A DNA stretch of 64,000 nt from an uncultured Chloroflexia bacterium (GCA_963719465.1 OY970386.1:789789-853788), one strand, 5' to 3'. Shown: positions 17,479-48,296, counted from the stretch's first letter. Numbers and translations are program-made. Notes: generated from the sequence alone by a model not told the origin.

Positions 17479-18867
17479 ATGAAGAGAGCGGCTTTCGCGT
17501 TCGCGCTGAGTCTGGCGACGGCATCATTCGCTCTGGCCGGTCCGCGTTACCCCGTCGCGGCCGCCGGTCCGTCCAGTTGCGGCGGCGACCAGCCCGGCAT
17601 GGCGAATCCCGCCGCCGTCTATTGCCGCGATCTAGGGTACAACTACGAAGTCGTGAACGGCGCCAGGGGAGAGCAAGGCGTCTGCGCCCTGCCGGATGGA
17701 AGCAGGTGCGACGAATGGGAGTTCCTCGAGGGCACGTGCGGCCAGGCCTACTCGTATTGCGCGAAGCAGGGCATGAACATGACAACCAGGACCGACGGCA
17801 ATGACCCGTTCACCCGGGAATACGGCGTTTGCGTCCGCGGCAAGCAGCAAGTCGGACCCGTAACCGGGCTGATGGGCTTGAGCCAGAAGGCCGCAGTGGG
17901 AACTCCACGACCGGCGCCAAGCGGCGCTGGCGCGGCTCCCCTTACCTCGACCGCTCCCCAGGCGGCTTCATCTGGTTCATTCGATTGGAGGAACGAGAAC
18001 GGGGAGGACTGGATGACCTCCGTCAAGAACCAGGGGATCTGCGGCGCCTGCTGGGCGTTCTCGGCCGTCGGCGTGGCGGAGGCGACAACGAAAATACGGC
18101 GGAGCGACCCGAACCTCTATATCGATCTGTCGGAAGAGTACCTGGTATCCGGCTGCTACGGGGGCCAGACCGGCTGTTGCGGCGGAGACCCCGCGGTGGC
18201 CCTGGATTCAATCGCCGCGTCAGGTATTCCGGACGAAGCCTGCCTTCCGTACGTCGACGGGGACGCCGACGGCTGCGCCTGCAACGGAGACGGCTCCTGC
18301 AACGCTTCCATGTGCACCTACGCCGTCGACGCCTGCAGCGACAAGACCTGCTCTGACAGATGCTCCAATTGGCAGTCGCGCATGGTGGGGACCGGCCCCG
18401 AAACGCTCGTCCCACCGGACGCGGACAGCATCAAGAATGTTCTCATCACCAACGGGCCGCTCTCAGCCGTTATGGGCATCGGTGGCGAAGTCGGCGGCCA
18501 CTTCGACGGCGATATCTACAGGTGCAGCGACGACTCGGATTCGAACCACGCGGTGGTTATCGTCGGCTTCGACGATGCCGGCGGCTACTGGATCGTGAAG
18601 AACAGCTGGGGCGCCACCTGGGGCCCCGAACTCGACGGCTACTTTAAGGTCGGCTACGGCGAGTGCGCCATCGAGAGCTACGTGCACGCCGTTTTGCCCG
18701 TTCCGGGGGTCGGCGGCCTCGCCGAAGCGCCGGACGTGATGGCCGCGACGCCGCAAACCGCCGGCCCGCCATGGACAGAAATCGCCGCTGTTCTCGCCGC
18801 AGGAGTCGTCGTCGTCGCGGCTGGCGGGTGGTACGCGCGGCGCCGCTACTCCGTCAGACGGCGGTAA
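17479..18867 (+). CDS. secreted papain-family (C1) cysteine protease with N-terminal DUF333 domain and C-terminal TM/GGWYARRR anchor
   Basis: Signal peptide; DUF333-like MANPAAVYCRDLGYNYEV...CALPDGSRCDEWEFLEGTCG; C1 catalytic motif QGICGACWAFSAV and a Cys-rich insert; C-terminal VGGLAEAPDV...hydrophobic helix...GGWYARRRYSVRRR. Confidence 0.8.
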   Translation: MKRAAFAFALSLATASFALAGPRYPVAAAGPSSCGGDQPGMANPAAVYCRDLGYNYEVVNGARGEQGVCALPDGSRCDEWEFLEGTCGQAYSYCAKQGMNMTTRTDGNDPFTREYGVCVRGKQQVGPVTGLMGLSQKAAVGTPRPAPSGAGAAPLTSTAPQAASSGSFDWRNENGEDWMTSVKNQGICGACWAFSAVGVAEATTKIRRSDPNLYIDLSEEYLVSGCYGGQTGCCGGDPAVALDSIAASGIPDEACLPYVDGDADGCACNGDGSCNASMCTYAVDACSDKTCSDRCSNWQSRMVGTGPETLVPPDADSIKNVLITNGPLSAVMGIGGEVGGHFDGDIYRCSDDSDSNHAVVIVGFDDAGGYWIVKNSWGATWGPELDGYFKVGYGECAIESYVHAVLPVPGVGGLAEAPDVMAATPQTAGPPWTEIAAVLAAGVVVVAAGGWYARRRYSVRRR

Positions 18868-21800
18868 AGCGTCGGCAGGCGGCCCGGCAGCGACTCGATG
18901 TCGCCCAGTATCTCGTAGCCGATGTCTTCGCACATCTGCCCCAGGTACTCGTGGCCCTCACGGTCGACCGTCAGGCAGAACGGCACGATCCCCTTCCGCT
19001 TCGCCTCCATCAGCGCCTCGTGCGTGTCGTGGATCGCATACTCGCGCTCCGTGCGGTCGCGACCATACCCGTGGTCCTGCGGCCGCCCGTCGGAAACGAG
19101 AAACAGGATGCGCACCTTGGCGTCGTGCTGCTCCAGCTTCGCCGTCGCGTGGCGGATCGCCGGCCCCATCCGCGTCGAGCGGATCGGCTCCGTCTTGTCA
19201 ATGCGCGCCTTCACCTCATCCGATAGCGGCTCGTCCAGGTCCTTCAGCACGTAGAACTCCACGTTGTCTCGACCGTAGCCGGAGAAGCCGTAGATGCCGT
19301 AGTCGTCGCCAATCGCCTCCAGCGCGCCGATGAGCAGCACCATGCTCTCCTTCTCCAGGTCGATGATGCGCTTCGGCGGACGCAGCGCCGCCTCCGCCTT
19401 CCGCTGGCTGAGCCACTCGTAGTAGCGGCGCGCGTCGTGGCCAAAGTCGGGACGTGTGTCGTCTTCGGCGTACTTCTGCTTGCGCTTTTCGATCTCCTCG
19501 TCCGTCGAGGCGCTCATGTCGAGCAGGAAAGCCACCGCCACCTGCCGCTCGACCTTGTTGCGCCGCCAGTAGACCTTGTCCGTGAAGTTGTAGCCGGCGC
19601 GCCTCTCCGTCAGGTACTCGATGACCAGGTCCAGGTCGAAGTCCTCGCCGTCGTGCAGGCGCTTGATCTTGCGAAATAGCTCCGGCCGGAGCTGCTCGAA
19701 CTGCTTGCGCGTCTGCGAAGCCAGCGTGCTGTAGCGACGCAGCGTCTCCTCGAAGAACTCGCGGTCGCCCTGCTCCAGCGGCCGCTGCACGACGCGACAC
19801 CAGCGCGGCTTGTAGTCGGCGGCGCGGAAGTCCCACTCGTCGTACCAGAACGACTGCGGCTCCGCGACGCTCTCCTTCTGCTCCTCCTCCACCTCCTGCA
19901 GGCGCTGCCCGTCCTGCAGCTCAATCGCCTGGTCCGGGATCGGCACGCCCGCTTCCTTCTCCAGGTTCGTCAGGAAGATTCCCATGGCGGAGGAAAGGTC
20001 GCCTTCGGCCATCCCGCCCACCACGATCTCGACGCTCTTCTCCATGAGCTCGCGCAGCTGTTCGGCCGTTAGCGGCGCCAGCCCCTCCGGCGCCTCGAGC
20101 CCCTCCTGGAGACGCAATCGCATGAGAAGCTGGACGAGCTCCGGCTTGAAATCGCCGCGAAAATCGACCGGCTGCGGGCTCTCGTAGGCCTGCTCCGACC
20201 CGCGCGGCAGCTCGCCGCCCTGCTGCGTTGCGGCACCGGTCTGCGGCTTCAGGTTCATCATGGCGAACAGCTCTTCGTCCAGCGGCTGCCAGTCCAGGAC
20301 GTCCAGGTCTTCCGGCGACACGTTGGGCAGCAACGTCGCCAGGTCGTAGAGGCGCAGCGCCGCTTCGGCAGCGTCCTCCACCGTCGCCTGCGACCGCTGG
20401 ACGGCGCGCAACAGTCGTAGCGCGGCCACCAGCGTGCCTCGCAGCTCCTGCGGCCACACGACGGCGTGCAGACCGTCCAGGCTGGCGCGGATGAGGTTCT
20501 CCAGGAAGGCCTCCCTTAGCGGCAGCCCGGGCAGACGCGGACGCCGCTCCAGCTCGCGGCCCTGGATCAGCCGCCAGGAGCGCCGGATTCCGCCGTACTC
20601 CCGCTTGACCAAAAAATCGACGCGGGCATCCTCGACGACCGTAAACAGGTCGGAGATAAGCTGGCGGTCGGCAAAAAGGTCGAAGAAGCGCTCCATGTCC
20701 GTCAGCGGCCCCTCGGCCTTGGCGGCCTGCCTCTTCAGCCGACGGCGTCGCGAGGCGAAGACGCGGCCGCGGCGCCCGAAGGCGAAGAGAAAGCTCCCGA
20801 ACTCCAGGTGGCCGGACTGATGCGTCGCGTAGACCTTGTAGACGGCAAAGTTGCGCGCCTTGTCGTCGAACTCCTCGGCAACGTCCGGCAGGTACACCGC
20901 CGTGCCCTCCGTCGAAGGCCGTCCGGCCGCCACCCAGCCGATGCCCTTCTCCGTCAGCGTGCTCGACGGATGGATTGAAACGTTTGCCCCTGTCAGCGCC
21001 TTGCAATAGAGGCGCAGGACCTCCGACACGCGCGAAAGCTCCACCCGCGGCGAAAGCTCCTCCAGCACCTGCTCGCCCTTGCCCGACTGCAGCCGGAAGA
21101 ACGCCTCCCCGCCCTCTGAGCTTTCCTTGAGGATGCGCCGGCCCGCTGCGTGCCAGCGCGACAGGTCGCGCAGCGACATTCGGGATAGCACTTCCGGCGC
21201 GCTCTTCAGGAACTCCATCGCCGCGGCGGGGGAGCCTATCGCGAGCTCCTCGGCGAGCGAAATCGAGATCCCCGTGACTGGCCGCCTCGACCTGCGCCAG
21301 AGCGCCCGCCGCCTCCGCGAAGAGCGAATAGGCTCGCGAACCGACGCGTCGAGAAATGCCGCTGGCGAGACGCAAGAAGCGCCCCCGCTCGGAAGGCTCC
21401 AGGCCGGCCAGTAAATCGGGGGCTTGCTCGAAGTAGAACCGCACCTCCGCCCAGCTCGCCGCCGCGATTCCCTCCGCCAGGTCGAGGAACGGGCCACGGT
21501 CATCCGGCTCCAGGCGGCCGAAGACGGCGGCGCCGGTCTCCAGGCAGTTGCTGGCAAGCTCGTAGGAGCGTTCCGCCAGCCGTTCCGCCAGGACCTCGAG
21601 CCGGCAGAGCTCCGCCGCGCCCAGGAGCGGCAGCAGCGTCGGGCTGACGACGAAGAACAGCGAGGCGAGGGAGATCGACTTCCAGTTGCCCTGGTAAAGC
21701 CGCTGGCCGGCGGCCGCCCACCGCTTCAACTCATCCGGCGACAGCAGGCCAACGCACTCGGGGCTGACGCGAAAGTAGGCCGCCGCGACTATCGACGACT

Positions 21801-22083
21801 GATCGGCGATGTCGCGCCCGAAGTGGCACCAGCGCAGCACATCGTCCAGAGGAAGGAGCTCGACTACCTGCGGGCTGGCGCGAAAGTACTCCGACGCCGC
21901 CTCCCACGACCGCAGCGACTGCCCGGCAAGCGCCACGCCCTCTTCCGCCCAGCTTCGCAGGCCGCTCGGTCCAAAGCGCGCGAGAACGGCCGGCGCGGCC
22001 CGGCGCAGCTCCGTCGAAACGCCCGGCGCCACGATGGCAAGGCGTCGGTCGTATTCTGAGAGATCTGAACTCTGCTTTGGCAC
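18846..22083 (-). CDS. NorD/CbbO-like von Willebrand factor A protein (about 1080 aa), frameshifted near 21275
   Basis: The N-terminal repeat region is in ORF 19921..22083 up to ...AGALAQVEAAS. The rest is in ORF 18846..21557 from ...ISISLAEELAIGSPAAAMEF..., with a C-terminal VWA/MIDAS (VAFLLDMSASTDEE...LVSDGRPQD). It is co-directional with the upstream CbbQ/NorQ ATPase. Confidence 0.75.
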
Positions 22084-22184
22084 GAATCCATTCTAAGCCA
22101 AAGCGATGATTGACGCCTTTCGACAGCGGCTGCCAACAGGATTTAGCAAGCGTCAGATGGGGAGCCGCCTCACTTCAACCGAGG

Positions 22185-22928
22185 CTAGTGCTCCTGGACA
22201 GTAATGCTCACGATCTTGTCGCCGGGCGTGGTTGCCGTACTGGGGTCGCGCGGCGTGATCTTGTTCAGCACGTCGAGGCCGTTGGTCACCTTCCCGAACA
22301 CGGTGTATCCGCCGCTCAGCTGCGGCTGCGGCGCCAGGGTGATGAAGAACTGGCTGCCGCCGGTATTGTGCTGGCCGGCGTTCGCCATCGCCACCGTGCC
22401 CGTGTCGAACGAAGAAGACGTGAACTCGTCTGGCAGATTATAGCCGGGCCCGCCATCTCCCTGACCCGTCGGATCACCTCCCTGCGCTACAAAGCCCGCG
22501 ATGACGCGGTGGAACGTGAGGCCATCGTAGAAGCCCCTGCAAGCAAGGAAGACGAAACTGTTGACCGTCACCGGCGCGAGGTTGGGCTCCAGCTCAATCG
22601 TGATGGCGCCGTTCGCCGTCGTCAGCGTCGCGGTGTACTGCTTGCTGGGGTCGATCACCGTCTCCGCCCCTGTGAAGCTCTTCTCCGCGCTCTTCGTGCA
22701 GAGCGACGCGAAGTCGCCCTGTCTCGGCGGCAGCTTGTTTGAAGGAACGGTCGCGGTGGCTCCGCTAATGGTTATCTGTCCTCCCTTCGCCACCATCGTT
22801 GGAACTCCGTTCGCCGACGATCCGGAGCTGTTGTTGCTGTTGCTGCCCCCGCCGCAGCTCGAAGCCACCAGAAGCAGCGCCGGCGCCATGGCAAGAACCA
22901 ACGACATCTTGAGTATAGACGATTTCAT
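22185..22928 (-). CDS. cyclophilin-type peptidyl-prolyl cis-trans isomerase lipoprotein
   Basis: Signal peptide with lipobox (LLVASSCGG), a Ser/Asn-rich linker, then the cyclophilin core: FHRVIAGFVAQGGDPTG, GGPGYNLPDEF, MANAGQHNTGGSQFFI. Confidence 0.85.
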   Translation of the reverse strand: MKSSILKMSLVLAMAPALLLVASSCGGGSNSNNSSGSSANGVPTMVAKGGQITISGATATVPSNKLPPRQGDFASLCTKSAEKSFTGAETVIDPSKQYTATLTTANGAITIELEPNLAPVTVNSFVFLACRGFYDGLTFHRVIAGFVAQGGDPTGQGDGGPGYNLPDEFTSSSFDTGTVAMANAGQHNTGGSQFFITLAPQPQLSGGYTVFGKVTNGLDVLNKITPRDPSTATTPGDKIVSITVQEH

Positions 22929-22941
22929 CTCTTCTCGCTCC

Positions 22942-23844
22942 TCACTCGAAAATGGACGATACGACCTCTTCGATGCTGCGCTGAAGCTCCGGGTCGTCCG
23001 TGAGGGACCAGACGACCGCGGACTGACAGGCCTGCCGCGGCGAAACGCCTTCGACGATAAGCTTGCCGGCGTAGATCAGCAACCGCGTGCTCACGCCTTC
23101 GGCAAGGCCGTGCTCTTTGAGGTTGCGGACCTTCTCGCCCAGCTTTGCCAGCTCCCCCGCGATCTCCAGCGCGACGCCCGACTCTCGCGCAATTATCTGC
23201 GCCTCCTGCTCACGATTCGGATAGCCAAACTCCATCGCCGCGAAGCGCTGGCGAGTGCTGTGCTTCAGGTCTTTCAGTGCGCTCTGGTAGCCGGGATTGT
23301 ACGAGATGACGAGCAGAAAGCCGGCCGCCGCCTCTAGGATCTGGCCGCGCTTTTCGATCGGCAGGATGCGCCGGTGGTCCGTCAGCGGATGAATCAACAC
23401 CGTCGTGTCCTTGCGCGCTTCCACCACCTCGTCCAGGTAGCAGATGGCGCCGGCCTTCACCGCTCGTGTTAGCGGTCCGTCGATCCAGCGTGTCGAGTCC
23501 CCCTCCAGCAGGTAGCGCCCGACGAGATCGCTTGCCGTCAGGTCTTCGTGGCAGGCGACGGTGACCAGCGGCAGGCCGTGCGTCTTCTCGCTGCCGCCAT
23601 CCGTGGCGTCCTTGATTATCGTGAGCGGCCGTCCCAGCTTCCAAGCCATGTACTCGATAAAGCGCGTCTTGCCGCAGCCGGTAGGGCCCTTGAGGAGGAC
23701 CGGTATCTGCTGGTCGAATGCGGCCGTAAAGAGCTCGACCTCGTCGCCGACAGGCAGATAGTAGGGCTCCTTCAGCGCGTAGTATTCTTCCACGGCGTAC
23801 TGCCGGAAATCGCCTTCGACCAGTCGAGCTCGTTTCGGCATCAC
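22942..23844 (-). CDS. MoxR-type AAA+ ATPase, CbbQ/NorQ/GvpN family
   Basis: Walker [19 protein letters not shown], Walker B ICYLDEV and the CbbQ-like C-terminal domain. Confidence 0.85.
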
Positions 23845-23874: not shown

Positions 23875-24492
23875 TCAATTGTTTCGTTGGACAATTCGAG
23901 CCTGGAGAGCCTCCCACAACGCCTGCACCCGCCCCTCTAGCTCTGCCAGCGTCCCGTTGTTCTCAATAACGACGTTGGACTGACGGCATCGCTCTTCATT
24001 GCTAAGCTGGGTCCGAATCCGCGCCTCCGTCTGCTCCCGCGGAATGCCCTTCGCCTCCAACCGCTGCGTGGCCACCTCTGCGCTGGCGACCACCACCCAT
24101 ATCTCGTCGACCAGCCACTGCCAGCCGGCCTCCAGCAAGACCGCCGCCTCCAGCACAGCCACCCGCTCGCTCTTACTGCGCAGCGTCTCCACGTCACGGG
24201 CCATGATCTCCGCCATGGCGGGCCAAACGATGTCATTCAGCCGCTGGCGGTCCGCCGGTTCCGCGAACACGCGCTTGCCCAGCGCCTGCCGGTCGACCTC
24301 GCCGTTGGCACCGACGATCTCCGGTCCGAACGCTTCCACGAGCCGGTCGTACGTCGGCGAGCCCCTCCGGTATGATCGGTGGCCGACGAGGTCGGCGTTT
24401 ACAAAGGCAGCCCCTCTGTCGAAGAGCATTCTCGCGACGGTCGACTTGCCGCTGCCGATGCCACCCGTAAGGCCGATAGTGATCATCGCCAC
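23875..24492 (-). CDS. coaE: dephospho-CoA kinase
   Basis: ITIGLTGGIGSGKST...NADLVGH... Confidence 0.85.
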   Translation of the reverse strand: MAMITIGLTGGIGSGKSTVARMLFDRGAAFVNADLVGHRSYRRGSPTYDRLVEAFGPEIVGANGEVDRQALGKRVFAEPADRQRLNDIVWPAMAEIMARDVETLRSKSERVAVLEAAVLLEAGWQWLVDEIWVVVASAEVATQRLEAKGIPREQTEARIRTQLSNEERCRQSNVVIENNGTLAELEGRVQALWEALQARIVQRNN

Positions 24493-24671
24493 GCCTGAGA
24501 GACGCGCCTGCCGCTCGCAGGCGGCGGGACGCGACCAAGTACAACCATTCTAAGAGCGGCCCACGGAGCGGTCAAGCGAAGTTGCCCATCGCTTCGAGGT
24601 TGCACGCCTCTCCCGTCGTTTCTTATTTCCGATAATCTCTAAGGAGAGGCTTATGCCTAGGATCACTAGGA

Positions 24672-45634: not shown

Positions 45635-46906
45635 ATGACCACCACCTGGCAGATCGACACCCTGGACAACGGACTCCGCGTCGTCACCACCCCCATGCCG
45701 ACCGCCCAGTCGGCCAACGTCTGCATCTTCGTCGGCGTCGGCTCCCGCATGGAGGACCGGCGCGTCAACGGCATCTGCCACTACCTGGAGCACATGCTCT
45801 TCAAGGGCAGCGCCAAACGGCCTACCGCCCAGGCCATCTCCGAGGCCATCGAAGGCGCCGGCGGCGCCCTCAACGCCTTCACCGACAAGGAGATGACCGG
45901 CTACTGGGCGCACGTCCCCTACGACCGCCTGGACCTCGCCATCGACGTCCTCGCCGACATGGTGCGCAACCCGCTGCTCGACAGCGCCGAGCTCGACCGC
46001 GAGCGCACCGTCGTCCAGCAGGAGATACGCCGCATCCACGACCAGCCCGCCGCCTGGACGTCCGAGCTCCTCTCCCGCGCCTGCTACGGCGACCAGCCCA
46101 TCGGCTGGCCCATCGCCGGCACCGAAGCGACGGTCGAAGGCATGCAGCGCGACGACTTCGTGCAGCACATGGGCCGCTGGTACCTGCCGGAGAACATCGT
46201 CGTCGCCGTCGCCGGCAACACGACGCCCGCGCAGGTGCTGGCGCTCATCCAGGAGCGGATGGCGACAATCGAGAGCCGCGCCCTGCCGCCCATCGCGCCG
46301 TCGAAGCCGGAGCTGCCGCCGGAGCGCGTCCAGGTCGAGTCCCGCGACACCGACCAGTCGAATCTCGCCTACGGCCTGCGCGCCCTCTCCCACACCGACC
46401 CCGATCGCTACGCCCTGACGGTCCTCAACACGCTGCTCGGCCGCGGCATGAGCTCCCGCCTGTTCAAGGAGGTGCGCGAGCGCCGCGGTCTCGCCTACTC
46501 CGTCGGCTCGTCCGTCAGCCGCCACCGCGACACGGGCTCCATGGCGGTCAGCGCCGGCGTCAGCCCGGAAAAGGCGGAGGAGGCCGGCAAGGTCATCCTG
46601 GAGCAGGTCTTCATTCTGGTCGACGAGCCGGTGCCGGAGGACGAGCTGACCCGCGCCCGCGACTTCACGATCGGCAACTTCCGCCTCGGCCTGGAGACGA
46701 CGATGGCGCTGACGCAGTGGACCGGCGAGAACCTGGTCTCCACCGGCGAGATCGATCAGATCGAGGACGCGGTGGCGAAGCTGCAGGCGATCACCAGCGA
46801 CGACGTTCAGCGGGTAGCGAAGCGCCTCTTCCGGCGCGACAACGTGGCAGTCGCGCTCGTCGGCCCCAACGCCGACCCGGGCTTGCTGGAAAAGACGTTG
46901 CCTTAG
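45635..46906 (+). CDS. M16-family (pitrilysin-like) zinc peptidase
   Basis: Inverted zincin motif HYLEHMLFKGS with the downstream E of the M16 family; about 420 aa. Confidence 0.85.
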   Translation: MTTTWQIDTLDNGLRVVTTPMPTAQSANVCIFVGVGSRMEDRRVNGICHYLEHMLFKGSAKRPTAQAISEAIEGAGGALNAFTDKEMTGYWAHVPYDRLDLAIDVLADMVRNPLLDSAELDRERTVVQQEIRRIHDQPAAWTSELLSRACYGDQPIGWPIAGTEATVEGMQRDDFVQHMGRWYLPENIVVAVAGNTTPAQVLALIQERMATIESRALPPIAPSKPELPPERVQVESRDTDQSNLAYGLRALSHTDPDRYALTVLNTLLGRGMSSRLFKEVRERRGLAYSVGSSVSRHRDTGSMAVSAGVSPEKAEEAGKVILEQVFILVDEPVPEDELTRARDFTIGNFRLGLETTMALTQWTGENLVSTGEIDQIEDAVAKLQAITSDDVQRVAKRLFRRDNVAVALVGPNADPGLLEKTLP

Positions 46907-46909
46907 CGG

Positions 46910-47677
46910 TCAGCGCTTGTCCGTCGCGACGTTGGCAAGCATCCACTGGTAGCGCTCCGGCGAGAGCTGCTGCAGCTTCTGCGGATCGTAGAAGAAGAGC
47001 GCGAAAGAATTGGCGTAGTCCTCCAGCGGGTCGTTGTTCGACATGTACTGCCACACCTGCGGCCCGTCGTAGGCGAATTTGAGCTGCGTCTGGTCGACGG
47101 CCGCCGCCACGTCGGCGTCGCTGCTCAGGAGACGCCAGCCGGTGGCGGCCATGAAGTCGCGCATCTCCTCCTGGAAGAAGACCCAGGCGTAGCGGCCCGG
47201 CGGCGTCATCCGGAGCTGATAGGCGTGACCGAGCTCGTGGAGGACGGTCAGCGTCCCCTGGTCGGGGTAGAGGACCAGCTCGTTGCGGCCGTCGTCGTTC
47301 GAGTAGAAGTTGGCGCCGCTCGAGTACACTTTGCTCCCCGACATGTCGCGCGAGTCGCTGTTCGACAGGATGTACAGCGGCCCGTAGATGCGGCTCCCCA
47401 GCTCGTTTACGACGTGCGTTGGCAGCTTCCCCAGCGCTTCAAGCACGGTGTTGAGGCTCAGATCGTCCCACGTCTGGCCGTCGGTAACGATTTCGACGCC
47501 GTAGGCATCGCGCGCCTGCTGAACCTGGCAAACCGGCTCCGCCGCCGTCAGCAGCGGCAGGAAGAGGAAGAGGGCAAAGGGAGCGAGGAAGCGCCGCCGC
47601 AGCGGAAGGCGCCGCACGAGCCGTCGCAAGTGCTGAATCGCAGCGCTGGGTCGTATCTCAGACATGAGAACCGGCAA
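46910..47677 (-). CDS. secreted HExxH zinc-metalloprotease-like protein
   Basis: Signal peptide (FALFLFLPLLTAA) and LTVLHELGHAY (HExxH), about 250 aa. The family is not recognised. Confidence 0.55.
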   Translation of the reverse strand: MPVLMSEIRPSAAIQHLRRLVRRLPLRRRFLAPFALFLFLPLLTAAEPVCQVQQARDAYGVEIVTDGQTWDDLSLNTVLEALGKLPTHVVNELGSRIYGPLYILSNSDSRDMSGSKVYSSGANFYSNDDGRNELVLYPDQGTLTVLHELGHAYQLRMTPPGRYAWVFFQEEMRDFMAATGWRLLSSDADVAAAVDQTQLKFAYDGPQVWQYMSNNDPLEDYANSFALFFYDPQKLQQLSPERYQWMLANVATDKR

Positions 47678-48026
47678 CCTCCGATCCGACTTCTCGAATC
47701 TGCCGTTGCCGGTTTCACCACTGGCTCGCCGAGGGCCTCGGTGACCATGCGACAGGCTCGAAGCCCATCGCCACGCCCCGCGGGGGGGACACGCCCTCGG
47801 TTCAACGCCTCAACAGACAGTAGCTTCTCTGGGAGACAATCTGCCTCCTCACACAGGAAAACGGCCGCCGCGAGCCGCCGTTACAGCCGCCGCGGCCGCC
47901 CGTCGAATCTACGGCAGCGTTTTTCACGCTTTCTTCACGTTCTTCGACTGCGATTCACGGCGACCGCACTTGGCGAACCTATGCTGAAGGGTCGGCGAGT
48001 CATCAAGAAACGAAGGAGTTAGAGAA

Positions 48027-48296
48027 ATGTCTGATTACCTGATAGAGTCCACCCATACGCCTGAGGAGTGCCTGCTCGAGCTAGACACGATAGTCCAGCA
48101 AGACCCGCAAGTGTTCGACACCCTCGAGTTTGGCTGTCTGGCCGGGGATCACCGCGCCGTGGCGATAGTGAAGGCGGAAAGCGAGTCGCAGGCGCTGGGC
48201 TTCGTGCCCGCCAGCCGGCGCAACCGGACGAAGGTCACGCCGCTGACGAGGTTCACCCCGGAGGACATCCGGAAGGCTCACGAACAGCACATGTAG
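48027..48296 (+). CDS. hypothetical small protein (89 aa)
   Basis: Good RBS (aaggagttagagaaATG) and high-GC codon usage. No family recognised. Confidence 0.45.
   Translation: MSDYLIESTHTPEECLLELDTIVQQDPQVFDTLEFGCLAGDHRAVAIVKAESESQALGFVPASRRNRTKVTPLTRFTPEDIRKAHEQHM

Follow-up and report, generated by a model that had tools for sequence, protein, structure and literature searches.

A probable orphan CbbQ/NorQ-type MoxR ATPase and long VWA adaptor pair in an uncultured Chloroflexia bacterium

We analysed 64,000 nucleotides (nt) of DNA from an uncultured Chloroflexia bacterium (GCA_963719465.1, OY970386.1:789789-853788; henceforth the window, with positions counted from its first letter), concentrating on a cluster of minus-strand genes at 18846-23844. 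We read this cluster, with a probability of roughly 70%, as an orphan CbbQ/NorQ-type MoxR ATPase together with its cognate long VWA-domain adaptor, i.e., a machine of the NorQD/CbbQO kind, with a cyclophilin gene between the two as a passenger and with a split in the adaptor gene that is a probable artefact. MoxR-VWA pairs are widespread, and few of their clients are known (Rubisco; cNOR, a nitric oxide reductase dependent on cytochrome c; CO dehydrogenase; and chelatases). The cluster consists of the following features, where L001 denotes a 90%-identical relative, residues refer to the restored adaptor protein and ORF stands for open reading frame.

22942..23844, minus strand: CbbQ/NorQ-clade MoxR AAA+ ATPase (Pfam AAA_5 and CbbQ_C)
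22185..22928, minus strand: cyclophilin-type peptidyl-prolyl isomerase (PPIase) with a lipoprotein signal peptide (Pfam Pro_isomerase, lipobox)
22084..22184, minus strand: 101-nt spacer between the cyclophilin and VWA genes, without a terminator-like site
21265..22083, minus strand: 5' part of the VWA-adaptor gene, frame A, residues 1-273 (tblastn of L001 residues 1-273)
21264..21264, minus strand: extra G shifting the frame (C on the plus strand; DNA alignment with the closest relatives)
18846..21263, minus strand: 3' part of the VWA-adaptor gene, frame B, residues 274-1078 and stop (ORF listing, tblastn)

An original prediction, made from the sequence of the window, had named a CbbQ/NorQ-family gene at 22942-23844, a lipoprotein cyclophilin at 22185-22928 and a C-terminal VWA domain with a MIDAS (an adhesion site dependent on metal ions), and had suggested either an uncharacterised variant of the MoxR-VWA pair or a coincidental neighbour. 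All of these assignments stand, the variant being borne out as a pair with a non-canonical long adaptor family. Its distance of about 100 nt between the cyclophilin and VWA genes was right, while the 14 nt given between the ATPase and cyclophilin genes measure 13 nt. Two statements about the adaptor were correct in part: the length of about 1080 residues agrees with the 1078 residues obtained on deleting one base (and with intact relatives), but the gene is not a single ORF here, its frameshift having been read through unremarked; and the internal repeats exist, but within residues ~45-345 rather than over 700 residues.

The ATPase and its long VWA adaptor

The ATPase is 299-300 residues long, with the ATG at 23841 as its likely start, and its sequence places it clearly in the CbbQ/GvpN/NorQ (CGN) clade of MoxR AAA+ proteins. 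Both Pfam matches exceed their cut-offs (AAA_5, 1.1e-29; CbbQ_C, 9.6e-31), and the protein aligns end to end with CsoCbbQ (5c3c, E=3e-103), CbbQ (6l1q, 2e-100) and NorQ (9qhd_A, 1.7e-93). It carries a Walker A motif (GPTGCGKT, from residue 53), a Walker B motif (YLDEV, at 136) and, at residue 109, a helix-2-insert (H2) motif fitting GRxLL/IxxxxT, which is the H2-insert motif of the contact between NorQ and the NorD finger (PMC13036017). After the Walker-A helix and before the next strand lies an insertion (residues ~73-91; 23572-23628, minus strand) that is variable (10-26 residues) and common to Dehalococcoidia CbbQ orthologues; CsoCbbQ lacks it. We looked for a signal peptide in the ATPase and in the adaptor and found none, the most hydrophobic 19-mer of the adaptor (Kyte-Doolittle value 1.92) lying inside a confident solenoid helix; both proteins are presumably cytoplasmic.

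The adaptor can be divided as follows (pLDDT: predicted local distance difference test score).

21048..21951, minus strand: N-terminal alpha-solenoid of ~38-residue helical repeats, residues ~45-345, with the frameshift falling inside it (repeat analysis, AlphaFold2)
20253..21047, minus strand: alpha/beta middle domain, residues 346-~610 (AlphaFold2, pLDDT ~85-95)
19848..20252, minus strand: low-confidence acidic linker, residues ~611-745 (AlphaFold2 pLDDT <50 from ~residue 660; variable alignment columns)
19533..19685, minus strand: stretch that aligns with the finger of NorD, residues ~800-850, PELFRKIKRLHDGEDFDLD...YWRRNKVER (sequence alignment)
18849..19532, minus strand: VWA domain with MIDAS D855-x-S857-x-S859 (DMSAS, 19506-19520), T970 and D998 (homology to NorD)

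The link to NorD lies at the C-terminal end. In a profile search of the PDB, the adaptor family matched NorD only (9qhd_G, 6.9e-43; 9qh6_G, 2.7e-37), and the match was limited to residues ~740-1075 of the query (its C-terminal ~330 residues) and ~340-643 of NorD, which takes in the stretch corresponding to the PdNorD finger, the VWA domain and the C-terminal motif. A Foldseek comparison of the predicted model with the PDB returned the same NorD chains for the VWA domain (probability 1.0) and otherwise non-significant designed helical repeats. Within a deep set of 48 homologues, which includes adaptor family members 30-45% identical overall, D855, S857, S859, T970, D998 and Y1073 are each kept in 45-47 proteins. 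The extreme C-terminus (LPTLYRRLTE) aligns with LPQIYRQL of NorD, with L1072, Y1073 and L1076 near-invariant. Residues 739-868 are strongly conserved and align with residues 340-466 of PdNorD, in which the finger comprises residues 403-448 (PMC13036017); since neither AlphaFold2 model is reliable over the finger and VWA part, the putative finger is assigned from this sequence alignment. Directly after the MIDAS DxSxS there is a partly acidic insertion of 35 residues (868-903; ~19375-19480, minus strand), conserved in the family and absent from NorD.

The first ~740 residues of the adaptor match no Pfam or NCBIfam family. Three strong units of ~38 residues (45-82, 84-119 and 121-157) are followed by weaker or degenerate ones up to ~330 and by none past ~345; shuffled sequences scored at most 1.2 bits in the same analysis, and AlphaFold2 predicts residues 1-345 to be all-helical (pLDDT ~90). 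The middle domain resembles NorD's N-terminal domain only below threshold (residues 346-425 vs. NorD 36-124, not significant), and Q422, E484, R487 and D489 within it are invariant in 47-48 of the 48 deep homologues. These residues belong to a motif, T-H-Q-x-x-H-x-E-F ... E484-D-x-R487-x-D489 (residues 420-489; ~20600-20830, minus strand), the spacing of which recalls a zincin-like metal site, with no homology detected. We mention such a site as a remark and did not adopt it: H421 (45/48) and H425 (36/48) are not invariant, and homology is undetectable.

The long N-terminus, which had been predicted to be non-canonical, is indeed confined to one kind of protein. A filter-free phmmer search with residues 1-273 against 1.84 billion representatives yielded 337 proteins, nearly all of them N-termini of proteins of ~1000-1130 residues or fragments. 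The named members are Chloroflexota, mostly Dehalococcoidia, and the most divergent named match likewise comes from Dehalococcoidia. When each GTDB species is represented by a single genome, relatives of the adaptor are encoded at 513 loci, and the best 80 of the 513 are all from metagenome-assembled genomes (MAGs) of Chloroflexota/Dehalococcoidia. The N-terminal module is thus family-specific, non-canonical and so far found only in Chloroflexota/Dehalococcoidia. Dehalococcoidia are abundant in soil and marine environments and poorly cultured, and a family with a distinct 1078-residue adaptor in more than 500 species-level genomes offers a concrete target for client discovery. One related locus additionally has a 129-residue ORF upstream of a full VWA gene (L025:4898-5287; MSFDAFVADAERRLANHN...) that resembles the adaptor N-terminus and may be a partial duplicate.

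We infer that the two proteins form a complex that acts on a client, and take NorQD (PMC13036017, PMC9976466) and CbbQO as templates for how it might work. CbbQ would form a hexameric ring and, with the adaptor, a two-component, ATP-driven machine for protein remodelling or cofactor insertion. The VWA domain of the adaptor would dock on the ring: the finger would reach into the pore, up against the H2-insert loops, and the C-terminus would rest on the post-sensor-1 loop, while the client would be held by the MIDAS site and the N-terminal region (the 300-residue helical solenoid and the alpha/beta domain). ATP hydrolysis would then put strain on the client by way of the linker, itself strained by an ATP-driven rotation. 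In VWA proteins associated with MoxR, N-terminal domains are reported to lack conservation and to vary in length, and have been proposed to determine target specificity (PMC9976466). The family-specific N-terminal module would be expected to do the same here; because VWA N-termini vary and probably set specificity, a new module of this kind would point to a new client and not to a new mechanism.

Gene order in related loci and the place of the cyclophilin

To describe how the cluster is organised elsewhere, we located the genes for CbbQ, cyclophilin and CoaE, along with others that recur, in 76 non-redundant related loci, with clades defined by clustering of the adaptor proteins (cyp: cyclophilin gene; MP: YfcE-like Metallophos_2 gene).

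Clades 1 and 3 (~20 loci): coaE-cbbQ-vwa, without a cyclophilin
Clades 2 and 6: coaE-cbbQ-MP-vwa, with the YfcE-like Metallophos_2 gene in the slot
Clade 4: two cyclophilins in the slot
Clade 5 (to which the window belongs): either cbbQ-cyp(-cyp)(-MP)(-further genes)-vwa or a lone vwa without cbbQ within 6 kb

CbbQ lies upstream of the VWA gene on the same strand in 49 of the 76 loci (and on the opposite strand in one more), which, along with the homology to NorD, upholds the MoxR-VWA pairing proposed in the original prediction. The two genes are often close in clades 1 and 3, where the distance between them is 2 nt or an overlap of 13 nt in about ten loci, 32-154 nt in most others, and 422 and 1025 nt in two. 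In 45 of the 76 loci CbbQ has CoaE as its immediate upstream neighbour, etfBA lies upstream of coaE in 16 and a convergent cinA downstream in 23. Cyclophilins occur in 26 loci, as does the Metallophos gene; in the sub-clade of the window there is a single lipoprotein cyclophilin, and the Metallophos gene is lacking.

The cyclophilin had been put forward as a possible part of the system, but it is missing from ~20 of the 76 orthologous loci (two clades in which VWA directly follows CbbQ), an outcome named beforehand as refuting the idea, and so is no conserved component. The protein has 247 residues, a Pro_isomerase domain (1.1e-43), a G/S/N-rich linker and an N-terminus that fits a PROSITE-type lipobox (APALLLVASSC; lipobox LVASSC). 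The long cyclophilins of eight related loci also have a lipobox (LIAAC, LVAC or FVAC), and the second cyclophilin of some loci (168-178 residues) lacks a signal peptide. Given that cyclophilins are absent from clades 1, 2, 3 and 6, that the protein has a lipobox and that unrelated housekeeping synteny is equally kept, the core system is probably the CbbQ and VWA pair, and the cyclophilin an operon passenger gained in one lineage, i.e., co-transcribed and not a subunit. The persistence of etfBA and cinA around these loci means that conserved adjacency in this class is weak evidence of function. A literature search turned up no account of Dehalococcoidia CbbQ or of CbbQ/VWA clusters that include a cyclophilin.

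Two further features lie upstream of the ATPase gene.

23875..24492, minus strand: coaE, dephospho-CoA kinase (Pfam CoaE, 9.7e-46)
24547..24575, minus strand: sigma-70-like promoter match upstream of coaE (TTGACC-17-TAGAAT, 10/12; a consensus match only, possibly the operon promoter)

The 13 nt between the ATPase stop and the cyclophilin ATG contain a GGAG Shine-Dalgarno sequence 9 nt upstream of that ATG, and a scan of the 101 nt between the cyclophilin stop and the start of the VWA gene found no terminator-like site. Given these spacers, the lack of such a site and the position of the single good promoter-like match upstream of coaE, a single coaE-cbbQ-cyp-vwa transcription unit is plausible from the sequence.

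One alternative is that the genes make up a genuine multi-part maturation module, in which CbbQ and the VWA protein act with one or more cyclophilins and, in relatives, with the YfcE-like metallophosphoesterase, so that the phosphoesterase or some membrane or exported protein would be the client and the PPIases co-chaperones. Gene order lends this some appeal. The cyclophilin and Metallophos genes (each 26/76) are almost always on the same strand between CbbQ and VWA, in the order CbbQ-Cyp-MP-VWA, the sole exception to this position being L069, with a CoaE-CbbQ-Cyp-Cyp block inverted upstream of the VWA gene; the close, Shine-Dalgarno-bearing junction of CbbQ and cyclophilin fits as well. CbbQ, cyclophilin and Metallophos genes stay grouped at loci from which the VWA gene has moved, and Metallophos and VWA remain together without CbbQ in the ~5 kb upstream in L076 (likewise in L036, where ~290 nt upstream are covered). 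MoxR-VWA systems are moreover known to insert metals, and Metallophos proteins are dimetal enzymes. Against this, clades 1 and 3 lack both genes, the 64-kb window contains no Metallophos gene, and the long cyclophilin, as a lipoprotein, would sit across the membrane from the ATPase. All loci, furthermore, come from one bacterial class in which the etfBA, coaE and cinA synteny is equally kept, so the gene-order pattern is explained by one ancestral insertion followed by inheritance. The attractive three-gene reading thus rests on synteny inside a single class, and we consider such a module unlikely.

The YfcE-like Metallophos_2 phosphoesterase itself (~200-230 residues) is encoded between the CbbQ or cyclophilin gene and the VWA gene (e.g., L016:2337-3005, L025:3361-4032 and L087:5301-5906), and might serve as a client or partner of the pair. 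A more far-reaching proposal would make the Dehalococcoidia CbbQ-long-VWA pair the motor of a lineage-specific metalloenzyme maturation, with the wedged genes supplying client and co-chaperones (the YfcE-like dimetal phosphoesterase, and cytosolic and lipoprotein cyclophilins) and HQxxHxE...ExxRxD in the middle domain as a metal-handling site; we hold this to be very unlikely.

The split reading frame of the adaptor gene

As given, the adaptor gene cannot be read in one frame: the interval 18846-22083 spans 3238 nt (remainder 1 on division by 3) and an ORF listing divides it into two ORFs that overlap but differ in frame (19921-22083, 720 residues; 18846-21557, 903 residues). Sensible protein sequence changes frame near 21264, where DNA alignment reveals the extra minus-strand G (window GATCTC-G-ATTTCG vs. 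L001 GACCTC-ATTTCT). Deleting one base gives a protein of 1078 residues that matches, colinearly and gap-free, a 90% identical protein of the same length from a Dehalococcoidia MAG, and is colinear also with more than 100 listed full-length homologues (~1075-1090 residues). The relatives thus show a single gene, and the possibility that the large protein is really two unrelated genes can be discarded.

A tblastn search with the proteins of the relative showed three further conserved genes at 10.7-15.2 kb to be similarly broken, namely a gene for a BFN-domain nuclease, an MFS transporter gene and pyrF, each by a single-base insertion in the window (~11135, ~13668 and ~14510) compared with the ~90% identical relative. 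With the adaptor gene included, there are four 1-nt insertions within ~11 kb, none of them in a long homopolymer. Given this number of insertions in conserved genes, one of which is pyrF, the extra G at 21264 is probably a sequencing or assembly error. Since the insertion is most likely technical, the organism probably makes the intact 1078-residue protein. The pattern also suggests that the assembly has a systematic insertion-error problem and that other split genes in the window need care; gene callers would report the VWA gene of this assembly as two fragments.

The alternative is that the VWA gene is a real pseudogene of a decaying system, or that it is expressed through programmed +1 frameshifting. 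The frame is, after all, broken in the sequence as given, and the insertion lies outside any long homopolymer. Yet both halves of the gene have a coding-type GC content at third codon positions (GC3; 0.88 for the 3' ORF, 18846-21557), tblastn puts the protein identity with L001 at 81% over residues 1-273 and at 93% over residues 274-1078, and none of the more than 100 listed homologues needs a frameshift. The same kind of insertion in the three nearby genes, pyrF included, also indicates a technical cause. On the strength of those insertions and of the intact homologues we judged both programmed frameshifting and decay to be highly improbable.

Known relatives, client and surrounding genes

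Several observations weigh against the interpretation of CbbQ and the long VWA protein as an orphan machine. AlphaFold2 gave a pLDDT of 30-60 for the finger and VWA parts of the adaptor, and a separate model of the C-terminal 379 residues had a mean pLDDT of 50. About 20 related loci have a VWA gene with no CbbQ within 6 kb, and CbbQ and cyclophilin stay adjacent where the VWA gene has moved away (e.g., L023, L025, L028 and L033); because this adjacency outlasts the relocation of the VWA gene, there is room for a real link between CbbQ and cyclophilin. The frameshift may also mark a real pseudogene of recent origin. No client was found in the 64-kb window, where all genes are housekeeping ones (aromatic and branched-chain amino-acid biosynthesis, gyrA, dnaJ, folD and others).

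Among known systems, NorQ/NorD, the chaperone for FeB insertion into cNOR (PDB 9qh4-9qhg; PMC13036017, PMC9976466), shares the ATPase clade, the order of ATPase then adaptor and the GRxLLxxxxT motif of the H2 insert. The VWA domain and C-terminal motif of NorD are homologous to the adaptor (E=7e-43, in a match that also spans the putative finger), and the MIDAS pattern DxSxS-T-D is kept. By contrast, NorD has ~640 residues and the adaptor 1078; the adaptor has an additional N-terminal helical-repeat solenoid of ~345 residues, a middle domain that is weakly NorD-like and the 35-residue insertion after the MIDAS, and there is no norCB nearby in a family so far found in Chloroflexota/Dehalococcoidia. 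The Rubisco activase CbbQ/CbbO (PDB 5c3c, 6l1q; PMC4660213) provides the best-scoring solved relative of the ATPase, with a highly conserved core sequence. It follows the same logic of a hexameric MoxR ring and an adaptor with a C-terminal VWA domain, the adaptor C-terminus and the ATPase H2 insert being important in both. It differs in that no Rubisco or carboxysome genes accompany the pair in the window or in the related loci, and in that CsoCbbQ is without the insertion after the Walker-A helix. Orphan MoxR-VWA pairs such as RavA/ViaA likewise combine a MoxR ATPase and a VWA partner with a client that is not encoded next to them; RavA belongs to a MoxR subfamily other than the CbbQ/GvpN/NorQ clade, and its adaptor has another architecture.

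The prediction had also raised the question of a client enzyme close by. There is none in the 64-kb window, neither Rubisco nor nitric oxide reductase, and the recurrent neighbours in the 76 loci include no client gene. A true NorQ/NorD or CbbQ/CbbO system with its client genes elsewhere in the genome is conceivable, and many homologues are annotated by the Joint Genome Institute (JGI) as 'nitric oxide reductase NorD/activation protein' and NorD and CbbQ/NorQ stand nearest among solved structures, but this reading is very unlikely, as the NorD match covers only the C-terminal ~330 residues, nothing significant links the N-terminal ~740, presumably the part that sets specificity, to NorD (domain independent E-value >1e2), no NCBIfam or Pfam family of NorD or CbbO type is hit, and norCB and cbbLS are absent both from the window and from the genes that recur around the 76 loci. 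We regard the JGI label as over-annotation from the VWA part. A role in anti-phage defence was also considered and rejected: PADLOC gave only P-loop-local matches of the IetA/mad8 type (E no better than 7e-5, ~40 residues) and no match for the VWA protein, and the locus lies within conserved housekeeping synteny.

Convergent to the VWA gene is a gene for a secreted papain-family protease (17479-18867, plus strand; Peptidase_C1 and DUF333 domains and a C-terminal hydrophobic anchor), the 3' end of which overlaps that of the VWA gene by 22 nt. This gene is found in none of 88 related loci, which marks it as an insertion specific to the window, placed between the VWA gene and cinA. In the window, coaE is flanked by genes for a GGDEF protein and a pyridine-nucleotide-disulphide oxidoreductase. 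A Peptidase_M16 block (45635-48296 in the window; L001:418-3095) lies ~21 kb from the coaE region in the window, and in the closest relatives just upstream of arsenic-resistance genes and coaE. Because both the position of this block and the flanks of coaE differ between the window and its closest relatives, a rearrangement separates these close relatives.

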